A DNA stretch of 64,000 nt from a virus (taxonomy: Duplodnaviria > Caudoviricetes), in the IMG/VR virus record IMGVR_UViG_2706795976_000001, positions 1-64,000 of that record, one strand, 5' to 3'. Positions 3,911 to 9,461 of this stretch are shown one piece after another. The number at the start of each line of letters is the position of its first letter. Position 1 is the first letter of the stretch. A program made the position numbers and the translations under genes. The notes under the pieces are model-generated. The model saw only the letters and a program-made list of their open reading frames with translations. It searched no databases and was not told where the DNA came from.

Positions 3911-4080
3911 AGTCCCTCCAGGAGGCGCTTGAAGATCTCCGTATCGAGACGCTGCAAGCCGACGGCACCTACTCCTTTGACGAGGAAGCCACCGAGAGAA
4001 TGAAGCGGAACGCCCGTGCCAACCCCGAGAAGTACCAGTGGCTTGTTGAGAACGACTGCAGTATCTGGACTGTGTTGTGA
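3877..4080 (+). CDS. Hypothetical protein
   Basis: C-terminal part of ORF 3796..4080; GTGA overlap with the next gene; start uncertain. Confidence 0.45.
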   Translation: MGESEASWDEVKSLQEALEDLRIETLQADGTYSFDEEATERMKRNARANPEKYQWLVENDCSIWTVL

Positions 4081-4859
4081 GGGCCCTAGAGATCGGATCC
4101 TCGGCCGCGAGGTACCGCATCCCAACGTGGCGCGAACCGAAGGACATCGACTACTGGTGTGACGAGGACTTGCCCTCGGGGGTCAAGTCGCTGATCAGGT
4201 TCGATACTTTCTGGCACCCAAGACTGGCGGATCTCCTTGAGGACAACGTGGTTCGCACGGCGACCCTCGACGAGCTCTACACGATCAAGTTCAGCCATGC
4301 CTACTGGGAGCTGCGCAACGGTTCCTGGGAGAAGCACATGGCCGACCTCCTCTCCATGAGAGACCATGGCGCACAACTGATCCCGGAGTGGCATGACCAC
4401 CTGTACAGGGTGTGGGAGGATGTCCACGGCAAGAAGGTGGTCGACCTCACCCAGGAAGCCGAGGAGTTCTTCACCGATGCTGTGAAGCGAATCTATGTAC
4501 ATGATTCGATCCACGACTCTGTGGCATACCATGACCGGCCGATCTACGAGGAATGCCTCAAGGACGGCAAGTCGGTCCAAATGGACATGGAGAAGGTGTG
4601 GGCCATGCCGTTCGAGCGTCAGGTGCAGATGTTCCGCGAGGAGATCTACGTGACAGCCCTTGAGCGGCTTGTGATTCCGAGTGATTACAAGTGCTCACCC
4701 GGCCGCGCATACCGCTGGGCCCTTCGCCGAACCATCACCAGCCTTACCAAGGGGCGGAGTGCAAAGTTCCTTGTCGAGAACTTTGACATCTTCGCCAGAG
4801 CTGATGTAGACTACGTCGGTATCCATTTGGCGAACACCGACAAGTTAGTGAGGTTGTAA
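4077..4859 (+). CDS. Putative nucleotidyltransferase (Pol-beta superfamily-like)
   Basis: N-terminal IGS-x14-DID signature (IGSSAARYRIPTWREPKDIDYW); also HDSIH motif. Confidence 0.6.
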   Translation: MRALEIGSSAARYRIPTWREPKDIDYWCDEDLPSGVKSLIRFDTFWHPRLADLLEDNVVRTATLDELYTIKFSHAYWELRNGSWEKHMADLLSMRDHGAQLIPEWHDHLYRVWEDVHGKKVVDLTQEAEEFFTDAVKRIYVHDSIHDSVAYHDRPIYEECLKDGKSVQMDMEKVWAMPFERQVQMFREEIYVTALERLVIPSDYKCSPGRAYRWALRRTITSLTKGRSAKFLVENFDIFARADVDYVGIHLANTDKLVRL

Positions 4860-5221
4860 TGGGAGCGTTAGCACCGGAGCAGGTCGACGAAGCGGTACTG
4901 AAATGGTATCGGAATCTGGTCGACGAGGCCGACAAGAAGTACAACCGTCAACCCCGGCATGTCGACCTGGAGGATGCGTGGAGTTGCCTCAGCTACCAGA
5001 CAAACCCGGTCGAAATCGAGGGCCTGGGGGAGGTCTGTGTCGAGGAGGACTTCGACGAAGAGTTCCACACGAATCGATACCTCGTGGTACGGGTCGGGTC
5101 GTCTCTTCACTACAAGCGCTGCGGATGGCGTGCGTCACATGACGGATCCTATCTCGACGGACCCACGGTCCAAGTCCGACCCCTGACCAAGACAGTAACC
5201 TACTGGGAGACAAACAAGTGA
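4859..5221 (+). CDS. Hypothetical protein (paralog of the next gene)
   Basis: C-terminal YKRCGWRASHDGSYLDGPTVQV. Confidence 0.75.
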   Translation: MGALAPEQVDEAVLKWYRNLVDEADKKYNRQPRHVDLEDAWSCLSYQTNPVEIEGLGEVCVEEDFDEEFHTNRYLVVRVGSSLHYKRCGWRASHDGSYLDGPTVQVRPLTKTVTYWETNK

Positions 5222-5679
5222 CCTACACAGCAGCAGACCTCGACTCGTTTGTCGAGGATCGGTACAGCACCGACGACTGGTCGGAGTTCCGGGAGGACGC
5301 CGACAACACGCGCGAGGTCGTCAAGAACCCGGACGTCATCCCCCCGGACCACATCGTGGATGAAGACGGGTGGCTTCGCGGCCCGGAGGAAGAGACCAGC
5401 TACGGACGCCCCTACCGTCCGATCGTCTACCGCGATCTTGAGCACCCGGGTGTGGCGGTTCCCGGCATCGGCCAGGTGACCATGGAGGAAGCTCACGGTG
5501 GCGAGGGTCAGGGTGACGAGTACTGGGCCGTCTTCAAGGTCGCAGGCTTCGACGGCAGTGTTCGCTACTTCAAGCGTGACGGCTGGTACGCATCCTACGA
5601 AGGCGGATCACTCGACGGCCCCACCCTCGAGGTGGCCCCCGGCGAGAAGGTCATCCGGGTCTGGAACGGGATCAGCTAG
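5218..5679 (+). CDS. Hypothetical protein (paralog of the previous gene)
   Basis: C-terminal YFKRDGWYASYEGGSLDGPTLEV. Confidence 0.75.
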   Translation: MTYTAADLDSFVEDRYSTDDWSEFREDADNTREVVKNPDVIPPDHIVDEDGWLRGPEEETSYGRPYRPIVYRDLEHPGVAVPGIGQVTMEEAHGGEGQGDEYWAVFKVAGFDGSVRYFKRDGWYASYEGGSLDGPTLEVAPGEKVIRVWNGIS

Positions 5680-5683
5680 CCTC

Positions 5684-5713
5684 TTGCACTCCTCCTGGTG
5701 TATCAGGTATACT
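5684..5713 (+). promoter_or_regulatory. SigA-type promoter driving the RNA cluster
   Basis: TTGCAC-N18-TATACT; predicted +1 near 5720, immediately before the first hairpin. Confidence 0.7.
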
Positions 5714-5720
5714 AGGAGGC

Positions 5721-6352
5721 GTGAGAGGGACTACAATCCCATTCCATGGGCCGGTGAAGGCTAGTCCCTCTCACTACAACTGAATAGCCCGTGTGGAACA
5801 TCATCCAACTACAAGTCCGGCATGATGCTCGCGCCACACACGGGCACAATCCTCGACATCAGGCGGCGTCTCGACGGTTTTCGCGAGCCGGGACACGGAG
5901 ACGGTAGGTTCAATTCCTACTCGAGGAGCTCGGGCTATCTGGAAAAGCTGGCTGGGGGGTGTTGTCCGCCCAGCAGCAGTCGACGGACACCAGATAGACC
6001 AGGCGGTGACCGAGTGTGTGTGTACTGGTCTGCACACAAGGTGATCTCGGCGAGTGGTAAGGAGTGCGCCCCTGGCAATGGTGGAGCTCCGAGAAGGTCC
6101 TAGCGGATCGGAAACTCTTGCGGCTTAGCGGCCTAACGAGATGCTCAGCTCGTGAGACGGTGGATCCAAATTGACGATTAGGACCACCACCCCTCATGCC
6201 CTGTCGGAGGACTTATCATCCTCCCCGCCACCTAAAATTGTTGCCGGTCCGTCTCGCCAAGGAGACGGCCACTCCGAGGGGGACCGGTAACTTCAAACGT
6301 AGGCTGACCCCATGTGAAAACCCGCCAGTGCCGTGGGGTCAGCCTACCACCA
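5721..6352 (+). ncRNA. Array of structured non-tRNA RNA modules (or one large ncRNA)
   Basis: No credible ORF. Consecutive long stems: 5721-5774 (13 bp perfect), 5787-5845, 5850-5927, 5936-5997, 6096-6185, 6206-6224, 6240-6291 (11 bp) and 6299-6347 (16 bp), separated by short A/C-rich linkers. Confidence 0.7.
5850..5928 (+). ncRNA. tRNA-like RNA without a canonical D stem or anticodon arm
   Basis: Acceptor stem TCCTCGA/TCGAGGA+G, T arm GTAGG-TTCAATT-CCTAC, long interrupted helix CGTCTC...GAGACG in place of the anticodon arm. Confidence 0.6.
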
Positions 6353-6353
6353 A

Positions 6354-6429
6354 CGGCGTGTAGCTCAGTTAGGTAAGAGCGCCCGGTTGAAACCCGGGAG
6401 GTTCGTAGGTTCGATCCCTACCGCGTCGG
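6354..6429 (+). tRNA. tRNA-Phe(GAA)
   Basis: Cloverleaf; CCCGG-TTGAAAC-CCGGG; T arm GTAGG-TTCGATC-CCTAC. Confidence 0.9.
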
Positions 6430-6432
6430 CAA

Positions 6433-6500
6433 TGTGCCTGGGTTGAAATACTACTCAGGAGGGCCCCGTCGAAAGGGCATGGGTTCGATTCCCAACACAG
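6433..6500 (+). ncRNA. Degenerate tRNA-like element
   Basis: T arm TGGG-TTCGATT-CCCA, closing stem TGTG/CACA, hairpins CCTGGGT/ACTCAGG and GCCC/GGGC; non-canonical geometry. Confidence 0.45.
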
Positions 6501-6540
6501 AGCCCGAAAGGGTGCCAGGACTTCCGGGGTTCTGGTCCAT

Positions 6541-6615
6541 TCCGGAGTAGCTTAATTGGCAGAGCTCCAGGTTGTTACCCTGATGTAGATATAGGTTCAA
6601 GTCCTATCTCCGGAG
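6541..6615 (+). tRNA. tRNA-Asn(GTT)
   Basis: Acceptor TCCGGAG/CTCCGGA, anticodon loop TTGTTAC, T arm ATAGG-TTCAAGT-CCTAT. Confidence 0.9.
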
Positions 6616-6628
6616 CGCAGTACAACAA

Positions 6629-6700
6629 TAGGATCTAGCTCAACTGGTAGAGCGGTGGTCTCCAAAGCCACTGGTAGGGGTTCAAGTCCTCTGGTCCTAG
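6629..6700 (+). tRNA. tRNA-Trp(CCA)
   Basis: GTGGT-CTCCAAA-GCCAC; canonical D and T arms. Confidence 0.9.
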
Positions 6701-6703
6701 CAT

Positions 6704-6777
6704 GCTTCCGTAGCTCAGCGGTTTAGAGCAGCTGATTCTTAATCAGCGGGTCGAAGGTTCAAATCCTTCCGGGGGCA
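6704..6777 (+). tRNA. tRNA-Lys(CTT)
   Basis: GCTGA-TTCTTAA-TCAGC; T arm GAAGG-TTCAAAT-CCTTC. Confidence 0.92.
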
Positions 6778-6822
6778 CGATGTTCGGCCAGCGCATCCCA
6801 CCACCACTGGCCGAGCACACAA

Positions 6823-6895
6823 CCTTCCGTAGCTTAGTGGTTAAAGCACTCGCCTGTCGAGCGAGGGGACGCGCGTTCGAATTGCGTCGGAGGGA
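6823..6895 (+). tRNA. tRNA-Asp(GTC)
   Basis: CTCGC-CTGTCGA-GCGAG; acceptor CCTTCCG/CGGAGGG. Confidence 0.85.
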
Positions 6896-7053
6896 CGAGC
6901 AGGTTCGCCACCGAACTACCTGCCTAAACAAAACCAGCCGTGTGCGCGCGCACTATGCAAGGGGGAAGCCCCGCTGGCACTCGAGTTCGTCGGGACATTG
7001 CCTGAGCTAGCTACTCAGCCGACCACCGGGCTCTCGAGTGAAGGGTGGCTCCA

Positions 7054-7132
7054 TCGGGTGACCTCATGGCGAGGACTCTGGCTGTAACCCAGACGCGTTT
7101 ACGCACAGGGAGTTCGATTCTCTCCGCCCGAA
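7054..7132 (+). tRNA. tRNA-Tyr(GTA)
   Basis: TCTGG-CTGTAAC-CCAGA, variable hairpin GCG-TTTA-CGC, T arm GGGAG-TTCGATT-CTCTC; compact D arm. Confidence 0.8.
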
Positions 7133-7224
7133 CAAACCCCGGAGGCAAGTGACAGCCTCTTCTGCCTCTGCAGATCTGATCGAATCTGTATGCGGACACA
7201 GAACCTAGGCTGTGGGGGCTTTTT

Positions 7225-7310
7225 GGAGAGTATGCCCACGGTGGGCGCGCGGTGTCGAATACCGCTATACGGTAAACATTCCGGGGGTTCAACTCCTCTG
7301 CTCTCCGCCA
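7225..7310 (+). tRNA. tRNA-Ser(CGA), CCA encoded
   Basis: Acceptor GGAGAGT/GCTCTCC + G + CCA, GCGGT-GTCGAAT-ACCGC, long variable arm. Confidence 0.8.
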
Positions 7311-7311
7311 A

Positions 7312-7394
7312 GGCGAGATATCCAGACTGGGTCTGGTCCCCGTTGCTAGCGGGAGGGCACCTACGGGTGTGGGATTCGATTTCTCATCTCGCCG
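7312..7394 (+). tRNA. tRNA-Ser(GCT)
   Basis: Acceptor GGCGAGA/TCTCGCC + G, anticodon loop TTGCTAG, variable arm GCACC-TACG-GGTGT. Confidence 0.8.
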
Positions 7395-7395
7395 C

Positions 7396-8121
7396 GTGAC
7401 TCCCAACATCGGCGTGGCTATCACGCACAAGGACCGGCCGCGCACCATGATGACCAATTACGTCAAGTGGTCTCTGGAAACCCCTGATGACGCACCCATC
7501 GTGGTAGTCGACGACGGTTCTGAGTACTGGGATGAGAAGTGGCCAGGACCTAAGCCGGACTTCATCAGCCCTAAGTCACCTAAGCAGTCTCGCGGTGTCG
7601 CTCGAGCCAAGAACATCTGTCTTGAGATTCTCATGGACCTCGACGTTGAGCACCTGTTCCTCGTGGATGACGACTGCTATCCAATCACCCCATACTGGTG
7701 GCACCCGTACGTAGAGTCGCCCCACCCGCACCTACAGGCCATCTTCCCGAAGCCGGGAGGCACGAGCGTCAAGAAGCTGGTCCCGGCGCGCCTGGATGAG
7801 AACCACATCTCCTACGACGGCGGACGCGGGTACTTCCTCTACTTTCATCGATCGGCAATCGAGAAGGTCGGCGGTTTCGACCCGACTTTCTCTCCCGGTG
7901 GCTGGGAGCATGTCAACATGTCCGATCGGATCTTCACTTCCGGACTCACCCCGAGTCGGTTCATCGACGTCTCCACGAAAACCATCCAGGCTATGGATGA
8001 GGTGCGTTCGATTGAGTCTTCAATAGGACCGCGCTCACGAGCGGACAGGGCCCGTGCGCGGGGGTATCGTTTGAAGATGATGGATGTACCGTACTACGTC
8101 GACTATAGGAGCGCTCAGTGA
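7396..8121 (+). CDS. Glycosyltransferase family 2
   Basis: IVVVDDGS, GVARAKN, LFLVDDD (DxD), GGFDPTFSPGGWEH; start set to GTG 7396 because the longer ORF overlaps tRNA-Ser. Confidence 0.88.
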   Translation: MTPNIGVAITHKDRPRTMMTNYVKWSLETPDDAPIVVVDDGSEYWDEKWPGPKPDFISPKSPKQSRGVARAKNICLEILMDLDVEHLFLVDDDCYPITPYWWHPYVESPHPHLQAIFPKPGGTSVKKLVPARLDENHISYDGGRGYFLYFHRSAIEKVGGFDPTFSPGGWEHVNMSDRIFTSGLTPSRFIDVSTKTIQAMDEVRSIESSIGPRSRADRARARGYRLKMMDVPYYVDYRSAQ

Positions 8122-9461
8122 TCGAGCTGTCCATTCTGGTGTGCTCTACCCACACCAGGTACAACACGTTCGCTCCCAAGATCCAGGAGCAGCTCTACGG
8201 GCAGCTCAACGAGTCCAACCAGGACCGAGTCGAGATCCTGATGCTGACCGACAACAAGCAGATCATGCTCGGCGAGAAGCGGAACATGATGGTCGAGATG
8301 GCCCAGGGCGAGTGGGTTGTTTTCGTGGACGACGACGACCGGGTCGCCCCGGACTACATCGATCAGCTCCTCGCAGGCATCACAGAGGCTCGCAAGGCGG
8401 ACGTCCTCGTAAATGTGATCACCTTTAACGCCTCGGTCTCGATCAACGGCAAGCCTCCGAAGCTATGCCGTTACTCACACCTCTACACCGAAGATCACGA
8501 TACTGCCGATGAGTACCACCGGCTGCCCAATCACATCTGCTGTGTGCGACGAGACACAGCCCTGAGGGTGCCCTTCCCGAGCATCCCGTACGGCGAGGAC
8601 TCGGGCTATTCCAAGCAGCTCATCGAGCTCCTCATCCATGGCCTCCACATCGACAAGGTCCTGTACTACTACGACTACAACTCGTCCACCTCCGAGACTC
8701 AGCAGCAGAAGCCTGCCAGCCAGCGGAAGAAGCCCAAGGTACGCGAGCAGCCGATCGTCGACGTCGTGTTCTTGTCAAATGCCAAGTCCGAGAGCATGTA
8801 CCAGATGACCAAGGCGGCAATCCAAACGTGTCGAGACGGCGCTAGGGGTCACCGGGTCAACGTCATCGTGTTGGAGCAGTCGTCCAGGTACTGCACCTAC
8901 CTACAGGCCGACCGTGTGGTGCGAATGCCAAAAGAGTTCCACTACAACAAGTTTGCCAACAAGGGCGCTCAATTGGGAACTGCCCCTTGGCTTATAATCG
9001 CGAACAACGACCTCGTGTTCTCCTCAGGATGGCTGGAGGCTCTCCTCGACGCCACCGCCAATGGTCATACGATCGTGTCTCCACGGTGCCCGGTTCGGCA
9101 TCCCGTCAACTCCCTAGTGGTCGACCCTGGCTGGGTAAATGGGGTTCACTTCGCGGGGTGGTGCTTCATGATGTCGCGTCGGGTGTACGAACTCATCGGT
9201 GGCTTCGATGAGTGCGTGAGCTTCTGGTGCTCCGACGATGTCGTGCTTGAGCAGCTGAAAGAGGCCGCGCAGGGACCGCCTGCACTGGTGGGCAACTCGA
9301 TCGTAACCCATCTCGGGTCCGAGACGTTGAAGTCGGCCGACAACTACGACGACATGACGTGGGCTCAGGTTCACGCCTTCAATGAACACCACGGTCAGAA
9401 CAAGTTCTCTGACCACCCCAAGTACACAAGGTGGAAGGCACGAAATGGAATCCGAACCTGA
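8118..9461 (+). CDS. Double-domain glycosyltransferase family 2
   Basis: Domain 1: LSILVCS, GEKRN, VFVDDDD, GEDS. Domain 2: VDVVFLS, NNDLVF, GGFDE, SDD. Confidence 0.88.
   Translation: MIELSILVCSTHTRYNTFAPKIQEQLYGQLNESNQDRVEILMLTDNKQIMLGEKRNMMVEMAQGEWVVFVDDDDRVAPDYIDQLLAGITEARKADVLVNVITFNASVSINGKPPKLCRYSHLYTEDHDTADEYHRLPNHICCVRRDTALRVPFPSIPYGEDSGYSKQLIELLIHGLHIDKVLYYYDYNSSTSETQQQKPASQRKKPKVREQPIVDVVFLSNAKSESMYQMTKAAIQTCRDGARGHRVNVIVLEQSSRYCTYLQADRVVRMPKEFHYNKFANKGAQLGTAPWLIIANNDLVFSSGWLEALLDATANGHTIVSPRCPVRHPVNSLVVDPGWVNGVHFAGWCFMMSRRVYELIGGFDECVSFWCSDDVVLEQLKEAAQGPPALVGNSIVTHLGSETLKSADNYDDMTWAQVHAFNEHHGQNKFSDHPKYTRWKARNGIRT

Follow-up and report, generated by a model that had tools for sequence, protein, structure and literature searches.

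The tRNA clusters of phages have come to be seen as loci of counter-defence, with the focus so far on the tRNAs themselves. The array at 5684–7395 on the + strand of the window analysed here (a 64-kb stretch of DNA that is the start of a 98,136-bp IMG/VR virus record) raises the question of what else such a locus may encode. Within ~1.7 kb, 8 tRNA genes were interleaved with about 15 other folded RNA units, and more than half of the operon was RNA other than tRNA. This largely agrees with the original prediction, which had proposed a dozen or more non-tRNA modules, each closed by its own helix, among the tRNA genes. We consider it fairly likely that the stretch is an RNA operon of the phage, built of units that are independent and self-closed, and that the conserved units persist as small RNAs. 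The non-tRNA units are probably real small RNAs and not junk spacers, because several are tRNA look-alikes and at least three have been retained in related phages. Among named phages, those nearest to it infect Gordonia terrae and belong to the genera Smoothievirus and Oneupvirus.

Packing, folding, and putative promoter of the array

The closed units (n = 23), laid end to end, covered 93% of 5715–7394. Linkers between units were 0–13 nt long and totalled 124 nt, and with 42% A and 14.5% G vs 21% A and 30% G overall they were A-rich and G-poor, in line with their earlier description as short and A/C-rich. The 13-bp stem at 5721–5774, the 16-bp stem at 6299–6347, and the other stems listed in the prediction folded as described, and most of them beat 200 dinucleotide shuffles (z −2 to −6.4). 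Since the borders of those modules had been fitted to the stems, we refolded the spacers using only the borders of tRNAs and conserved elements. With these independent borders, the z scores on the + and − strands were −4.4 and −4.3 for 5715–5849, −4.4 and −3.6 for 5930–6001, −7.0 and −2.6 for 6233–6353, −4.5 and −3.2 for 6779–6822, and −1.7 and −0.5 for 6897–7040. Four of the five spacers thus folded more weakly on the − strand, and 5715–5849 was about equal on both. Two of the proposed modules, 6433–6539 and 6934–6977, were no better than shuffles when folded alone (z −0.5 and −0.6, respectively), with the second still backed by covariation (below). No module was repeated anywhere else in the 98-kb genome, and dispersed repeats or miniature inverted-repeat transposable elements were rejected as the identity of the modules for want of a second copy.

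No credible or conserved open reading frame (ORF) was present in the stretch from the stop codon at 5679 to the next coding sequence (~7396). The longest ORFs in the region, 5822–6103 (+) and 5910–6197 (−), were rejected because the homologous stretch in phage Smoothie contained only a 38-aa ORF; the long ORFs had no counterpart there, which bore out the view that the region is non-coding. A promoter-like element, TTGCAC-N18-TATACT, was read from the sequence at 5684–5714 (+), 6 nt upstream of the first hairpin. It had been described as a good promoter, and that judgement held in part: the motif is present and is kept in relatives, but a generic promoter scan gave it no score because the −35 box matches at only 3/6 positions. 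Among seven relatives examined, TTGnnn-N18-TAyAmT directly followed the stop codon in four (L205, OneUp, BrutonGaster, and WilliamBoone), as in the window, and the −10 box alone was retained in Smoothie, PhinkBoden, and Miskis. The array is probably driven by its own promoter plus read-through from upstream genes. From the conserved motif and the same-strand position of the units we infer that the array is co-transcribed as one unit.

Conserved and tRNA-derived units

The non-tRNA units fell into three classes. The first appears to consist of tRNA derivatives (5850–5929, 6433–6500, 7137–7218, and the ends of E230, an RNA at 6002–6232) that have kept an acceptor-like stem stacked on a terminal hairpin and lost the decoding parts, thereby shedding what is needed for decoding and retaining what is recognised by processing and end-modifying enzymes. 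The label of non-tRNA given to these modules at the outset consequently fails for 5850–5928, 6433–6500, and probably 7137–7218, which are tRNA-derived or cloverleaf-like. The second class is conserved, is not tRNA, and has specific conserved loops (E230 and hp8/hp9, 6899–6977). The third is made up of stable hairpins specific to the lineage. Compensatory changes, named as a check in the original prediction, were seen in three units (E230, hp8/hp9, and the relatives' version of the four-way junction upstream of tRNA-Ser, hereafter the pre-Ser junction). On this comparative evidence at least three units are under selection for structure. Two or three of them (E230, the pre-Ser junction, and hp8/hp9) are candidates for new RNA families, and at least two conserved structured RNAs of the array matched no RNA family in the databases searched.

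E230 (6002–6232, +) is a conserved structured RNA of ~230 nt, delineated by covariation and by homology to the Smoothie group. Modules proposed at 6010–6050, 6096–6185, and 6206–6224 are not separate units but pieces of this single RNA. In 16 records of the Smoothie group, an unannotated stretch that lies between two odd tRNAs matched E230 at 84–85% identity over 149 nt, and the alignment extended to ~230 nt. Its identity (85%) equalled that of the tRNAs, vs 46% for the flanking protein. In the consensus fold, a 5-bp closing stem is stacked directly on a terminal hairpin of 6 bp whose loop is 7 nt long, and the structure is followed by ACC. The interior has long hairpins on its 5′ and 3′ sides and, between them, a branched core that carries two UAGC tetraloops. 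Pairing was kept in 98% of cells and 12 pairs were changed on both sides vs 0–2 in slid controls, in an alignment that holds two real lineages only and from which the structure itself was derived. Eleven G-U pairs identify + strand RNA as the folding strand. E230 had no conserved ORF and no Rfam match, and was absent from OneUp, WilliamBoone, and the metagenomic contig L205. When viral, genome, and metagenome collections were scanned for its 16- to 20-mers, Cucurbita (a phage of the Smoothie type) was the only find; by nhmmer, the 195 loci drawn from genomes and metagenomes were chance word matches. A pac or cos site or a DNA cruciform was judged unlikely, as many of the conserved pairs are G-U and the position of the array relative to the genome end is kept.

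Hairpin hp8 (6899–6923, +) and the three-way junction hp9 (6934–6977, +) are joined by the linker CUAAACAAAA and were together 86% identical to L205:7424–7509. Eight of the 11 differences formed four compensatory double changes in two hp9 stems, no consensus pair was broken, and one difference (column 11) opened an extra inner pair of hp8. Four double hits would arise by random placement with P of about 5e-5. The only match in the hp9 scan was the contig of L205. The two hairpins lie in the Asp-Tyr interval in the window and just upstream of tRNA-Ser(cga) in L205, one instance of the gain, loss, and reordering of units between relatives that sustains the proposal of a modular array. Such changes between related phages suggest that the units behave like separate genes.

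The unit at 7137–7218 (+) is a cloverleaf-like four-way junction without linkers (fold z −2.4), with a CCCC/GGGG closing stem and the middle-arm loop CUGAUCGA. It begins 4 nt past tRNA-Tyr and ends 5 nt before tRNA-Ser. Six relatives have a conserved element of ~110 nt at the same place upstream of tRNA-Ser(cga), for which the consensus fold is again a four-way junction free of linkers; 6 of its pairs covaried, vs 0 in slid controls. The window unit and this element agree in position, architecture, the CCCC/GGGG stem, and the 5-nt distance to tRNA-Ser, and the loop motif CUGAUC is common to both, on an entirely different stem. BLAST alignments to OneUp and BrutonGaster also continued across 7212–7308, through the 3′ end of the unit. 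The two junctions are probably orthologous.

tRNA-like 1 (5850–5929, +) has the 7-bp acceptor stem (TCCTCGA/TCGAGGA) and TTCRANY T loop of a tRNA, the latter in a canonical T arm (GGTAGG-TTCAATT-CCTAC). Its D arm is absent, with the D region unpaired, and a long hairpin replaces the anticodon arm. ARAGORN reported it at a relaxed threshold only, as 'tRNA-???' with a 2-base 'anticodon'. In the relatives, the array starts with a gene annotated 'tRNA Undet' or 'tRNA-?(gacg)'. tRNA-like 1 aligned with this gene and has in common with it a UCGCGAG motif and the acceptor stem, in which one change is compensatory; by sequence, tRNA-like 1 is the ortholog of this 'tRNA-Undet'. The relatives' gene (L001:2379–2466, L205:6931–7018, and L200:3997–4084) encodes a class-II-like tRNA whose anticodon loop is 8 nt long. 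ARAGORN reads its anticodon as 'gacg', and the loop is entirely lost in the window ortholog. tRNA-like 2 (6433–6500, +) was found by a T-loop motif scan and folding. It comprises a closing stem of merely 4 bp, a 7-bp arm, a 4-bp arm, and a canonical T arm (GGGTTCGATTCCC); ARAGORN made no tRNA call there at default settings and no homolog was found. No RF00005 match was returned for either unit at E up to 10, and both lacked the D arm, an anticodon loop of 7 nt, and the score of a tRNA.

Known RNAs and competing explanations

A cmscan of 5300–7700 against Rfam 15 at E up to 10 returned only tRNA-type matches, sub-threshold tRNA-Sec-like matches, and a few chance-level matches to unrelated families, far below their gathering scores; at the gathering scores themselves, no family other than tRNA matched. 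GOLLD, ROOL, tmRNA, Y RNA, hepatitis delta virus (HDV)-type ribozymes, and CRISPR-DR repeats were not detected in this interval. One large ornate RNA such as GOLLD or ROOL had been put forward as the alternative to many small ones, and the array resembles these in being long, highly structured non-coding sequence beside phage tRNA genes. Unlike them, it consists of independent units that differ in order and presence in L205, Smoothie, and OneUp. This shuffling between relatives excludes a single large RNA and, together with the lack of an Rfam match, led us to reject GOLLD and ROOL.

A closer likeness is found in T4, the tRNA region of which encodes two non-tRNA RNAs of unknown role, RNAC and RNAD (species 1 and 2 RNAs; PMC3014915). 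These too are small non-tRNA RNAs among phage tRNA genes on the same strand, but the array here has ~15 units with no sequence relation to the two in T4, belongs to a phage of an actinobacterial host, and is known from sequence alone. E230 and tRNA-like 1 resemble tmRNA and YrlA in having an acceptor-like stem on a terminal hairpin, with a large insert replacing the anticodon arm. Neither ARAGORN at default settings nor Rfam found a tmRNA, no tag frame was seen, and the relaxed calls were implausible, permuted, and overlapped tRNAs; in addition, the E230 terminal loop, unlike that of tmRNA, is not a T loop. YrlA RNAs are present in mycobacteriophages (PMC4201824). YrlA/Y RNA was rejected for the array, as PF05731 gave positives in the control genomes but no Ro60 (TROVE) gene in the 98-kb genome. 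HDV-like theta ribozymes have been found 3′ of phage tRNAs (PMC10879173), and 7137–7218 lies similarly just 3′ of tRNA-Tyr (4 nt). By our reading, which used no dedicated theta model, it differs from these in having 4 nt between the proposed P2 and P1 strands, too short for P3/L3, and in that the fold supported for this unit, and covarying in the relatives, is a plain four-way junction. An RNA anti-CRISPR of the solitary CRISPR-repeat kind was sought as an Rfam CRISPR-DR match in 5300–7700 and none was found, with the host's own repeats not identified. Finally, van den Berg et al. (2023, PMC10264068) proposed that phage tRNAs are a means to evade tRNA-targeting defences. The likeness to that work is a tRNA array in an actinophage-like genome; the RNAs described there are functional tRNAs with altered anticodon loops, not anticodon-less mimics or non-tRNA RNAs.

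Upstream of the array, and syntenic with it in relatives, a gene at 4077–4859 (+) encodes a protein assigned by Pfam to DUF7277+DUF7275, with a predicted nucleotidyltransferase fold. The AlphaFold2 model (predicted local distance difference test score 90) had a Pol-beta-type nucleotidyltransferase fold, and a G-S...D-x-D motif was invariant across 40 homologs. The best solved structural matches of the model were MenT1 (Z 7.5), MenT4 (Z 6.9), an AbiEi chain (6.8), and TglT/MenT3 (Z 5.7), all middling values of a size that is common; ANT and Lnu nucleotidyltransferases were further matches, and Foldseek alone gave nothing significant (E at least 0.2). The Pfam AbiEii cut-off was passed by three close homologs, over ~25 residues only, and the window protein itself fell below it. 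The MenT toxins extend tRNA 3′ ends, and tRNA-Ser is preferred by MenT3 (PMC11541572, PMC10435456). A MenT/AbiEii-like fold upstream turns conflict over tRNA ends into a concrete hypothesis, and, going by the structural model, a conflict that involves the array and the nucleotidyltransferase is plausible. The family has >600 members in actinophages and actinobacterial prophages. In the Mycolicibacterium prophage L212, the DUF7275 gene lies ~2.5 kb from a gene for an Acb2/Tad1-type hairpin domain (L212:6366–6605). This domain belongs to an anti-CBASS/Thoeris sponge family, and by gene content the neighbourhood suggests counter-defence.

If the array is an RNA operon of independent units, host enzymes of tRNA processing (RNase P, RNase Z, and RNase E/J) may cut its precursor at the single-stranded A-rich linkers and tRNA-like ends. 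Each product would be shielded from exonucleases by its closing helix, which would also prevent misfolding between neighbouring units, and the conserved units would persist as stable trans-acting small RNAs by analogy with T4 RNAC and RNAD. The plain hairpins are more likely to be cis-acting, as folding insulators or nuclease blocks. Several observations weigh against such an operon. Stems form easily in high-G+C DNA, and a fixed-window scan of the whole stretch vs the rest of the window gave only weak enrichment (P = 0.08). Ten of the ~15 non-tRNA units had no homolog from which selection could be read. The covariation came from two to six sequences, with structures taken from the same alignments. 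E230 of the window folded alone had z −0.8, and the relatives' pre-Ser element folded no better than shuffles. The covariance model R1, built on the near-identical pre-Ser elements of the relatives, failed to detect 7137–7218, so the case for orthology of the two is made by shared position and architecture, the CUGAUC loop, and the continuity of the BLAST alignments.

The same folds could be without function, as degenerating tRNA genes plus chance stems in G+C-rich DNA. tRNA-like 1, as a degenerate form of the relatives' gene, and tRNA-like 2, without homolog and with z −0.5, would fit this, as would the fast turnover of phage tRNA arrays and the homing endonuclease insertions in those of the relatives. 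We nevertheless regard decay as very unlikely given the compensatory changes in E230, hp8/hp9, and the pre-Ser junction, the z of −7 reached by independently bounded spacers, the near absence of remaining unpaired sequence, and spacers in relatives that are more conserved than the adjoining coding DNA. It is also improbable, in our judgement, that all non-tRNA units are purely cis-acting spacers that serve tRNA maturation (by punctuating it for RNase III or RNase E, by blocking exonucleases, or as folding insulators) and are then discarded. Long perfect stems and short A-rich linkers speak for such spacers, and most hairpins are lineage-specific in sequence, yet a hairpin stays in place (hp2 vs WilliamBoone). 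However, E230 and the pre-Ser junction keep loop sequences (two UAGC, CUGAUC) and are conserved as much as the tRNAs, which is more than a generic insulator would need. The units also move independently of particular tRNAs, and OneUp and like relatives space their tRNAs 1–3 nt apart with no hairpins. If the hairpins do merely insulate or punctuate the precursor, the array is a natural case of dense, self-insulating RNA gene packing.

The tRNAs for Lys, Asn, Asp, and Tyr, all of which are in the array, are typical targets of anticodon nucleases. A counter-defence cassette, in which tRNA-like or minihelix-like RNAs decoy anticodon nucleases or MenT/AbiEii-type toxins, or are substrates of the phage's MenT-like enzyme, would explain why several units have an acceptor-like stem stacked on a hairpin without an anticodon, and why ACC(A/U) follows E230 and hp3. 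The syntenic upstream protein, with a fold nearest MenT1, MenT4, and MenT3 and homologs that match Pfam AbiEii, points the same way. Two atypical tRNA-Ser genes were present in all these arrays, and MenT3 prefers tRNA-Ser (PMC11541572); the proposal that phage tRNAs evade tRNA-targeting defences (PMC10264068) adds to the case. We still think this function unlikely, as the structural matches are of common, middling strength (Z 5.7–7.5), DUF7275 genes occur away from tRNAs (L206, L208, L211, and L212), and the ACCA-like tails are inconsistent from module to module. A more specific version, that the Smoothie/OneUp-type lineage and the window phage carry a dedicated tRNA 3′-end conflict module of MenT/AbiEii-like enzyme, atypical tRNA-Ser, and anticodon-less mimics, is quite improbable. 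In it, the mimics (tRNA-like 1, E230, and the pre-Ser junction) would soak up 3′-end toxins or be built or marked by the phage enzyme. If this version is true, both E230 and the pre-Ser junction would represent new RNA families whose protein partner is defined. Were the RNAs of the array to accumulate, RNA-based interference with the tRNA-directed enzymes of actinobacterial hosts would have tractable candidates in them; Gordonia and Mycobacterium phages and MenT-type toxins are both workable in the laboratory.

tRNA genes, lineage-specific hairpins, and neighbouring genes

ARAGORN found 7 tRNAs at default settings, and a relaxed threshold added tRNA-Tyr(gta) at 7054–7133 and the 'tRNA-???' at 5850–5929; there were no further tRNA genes elsewhere in the 98-kb genome. 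All lie on the + strand. tRNA-Phe(GAA) (6354–6430), tRNA-Asn(GTT), tRNA-Trp(CCA), and tRNA-Lys(CTT) (6541–6778), and tRNA-Asp(GTC) (6823–6896) were called by both ARAGORN and Rfam. The low-scoring tRNA-Tyr(GTA) has tRNA-Tyr(gta) annotations in the relatives' arrays. The atypical pair tRNA-Ser(CGA) and tRNA-Ser(GCT) (7225–7395) was called by ARAGORN, with sub-threshold tRNA-Sec-like Rfam matches of 32 bits. In the alignment, one of the two shows 8 bp in the acceptor and 6 bp in the D stem and resembles the 8/4 'allo-tRNA' forms reported among serine tRNAs of bacteria and phages (PMC5389517), and only tRNA-Ser(CGA) encodes CCA. In relatives, the 65-nt Trp-to-Tyr spacer (L001:2888–2952, with equivalents in L002, L201, L203, and L205) was almost invariant. 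It was nearly identical between Smoothie and OneUp, while the adjoining coding DNA was 66–80% identical, and forms a hairpin with two covarying pairs. No clear counterpart of it was found within the window.

The lineage-specific hairpins, also on the + strand, began with hp1 (5721–5774, z −4.9), a 13-bp perfect closing stem that holds two small inner hairpins, and hp2 (5787–5845, z −3.3), with a closing stem of 9–11 bp. In WilliamBoone, the linker ACAACTGAATAG recurs and leads into an unrelated hairpin of 8 bp just ahead of the first tRNA-like gene, a positional analogue of hp2. The others are hp3 (5935–5998, z −4.7), a three-way junction with an 8-bp closing stem; hp4 (6240–6291, z −3.5), with an 11-bp closing stem; hp5 (6299–6347, z −6.4), a 16-bp stem with a 14-bp perfect core; hp6 (6502–6536), two small hairpins upstream of tRNA-Asn whose z of −1.5 was not significant; hp7 (6781–6817, z −4.4), an 11-bp stem; and hp10 (6978–7040, z −2.7), with an 8-bp closing stem, an inner 5-bp stem, and a 7-nt loop. 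Hairpin hp10 was missing at the matching site in L205, and hp1–hp5, hp7, and hp10 had no detectable homolog. When 5715–6353 was compared in sense and antisense with 401 Mycobacteriaceae-group genomes, two marginal matches at chance level were the only result, and a host-derived or antisense origin was rejected.

The window and its relatives share a layout in which the DUF7275 gene, two small paralogous genes, and the tRNA array follow each other on the same strand. The terminase genes come next in the named phages, and the distance from the array to the genome end is 5–6 kb in the window and the same in relatives. The DUF7275 protein was up to 74% identical to homologs, in PhinkBoden (among named phages) and L205, and the 153-aa protein ending at 5679 was 44–49% identical to its Smoothievirus and Oneupvirus counterparts. 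A scan of viral contigs with the 153-aa protein found nothing; one with the DUF7275 protein found four loci, among which L205 alone was informative. The small genes between the nucleotidyltransferase gene and the array, 4859–5221 and 5218–5679, are adjacent paralogs that each matched phrog_8206 and phrog_18295, and Smoothie-type relatives have two small genes at the equivalent site, both overlapped by the match to the 153-aa protein. HNH endonuclease genes lie within the tRNA arrays of relatives (L001:3477–3902, L201:4573–5070, and L200:4978–5403), one of them overlapping a tRNA-Ser gene, and these insertions fit a fast rearrangement of the arrays. Downstream, at 7396–9461, two glycosyltransferase-like genes begin 1–2 nt past the last tRNA, so that tRNA 3′ processing would yield a nearly leaderless mRNA.

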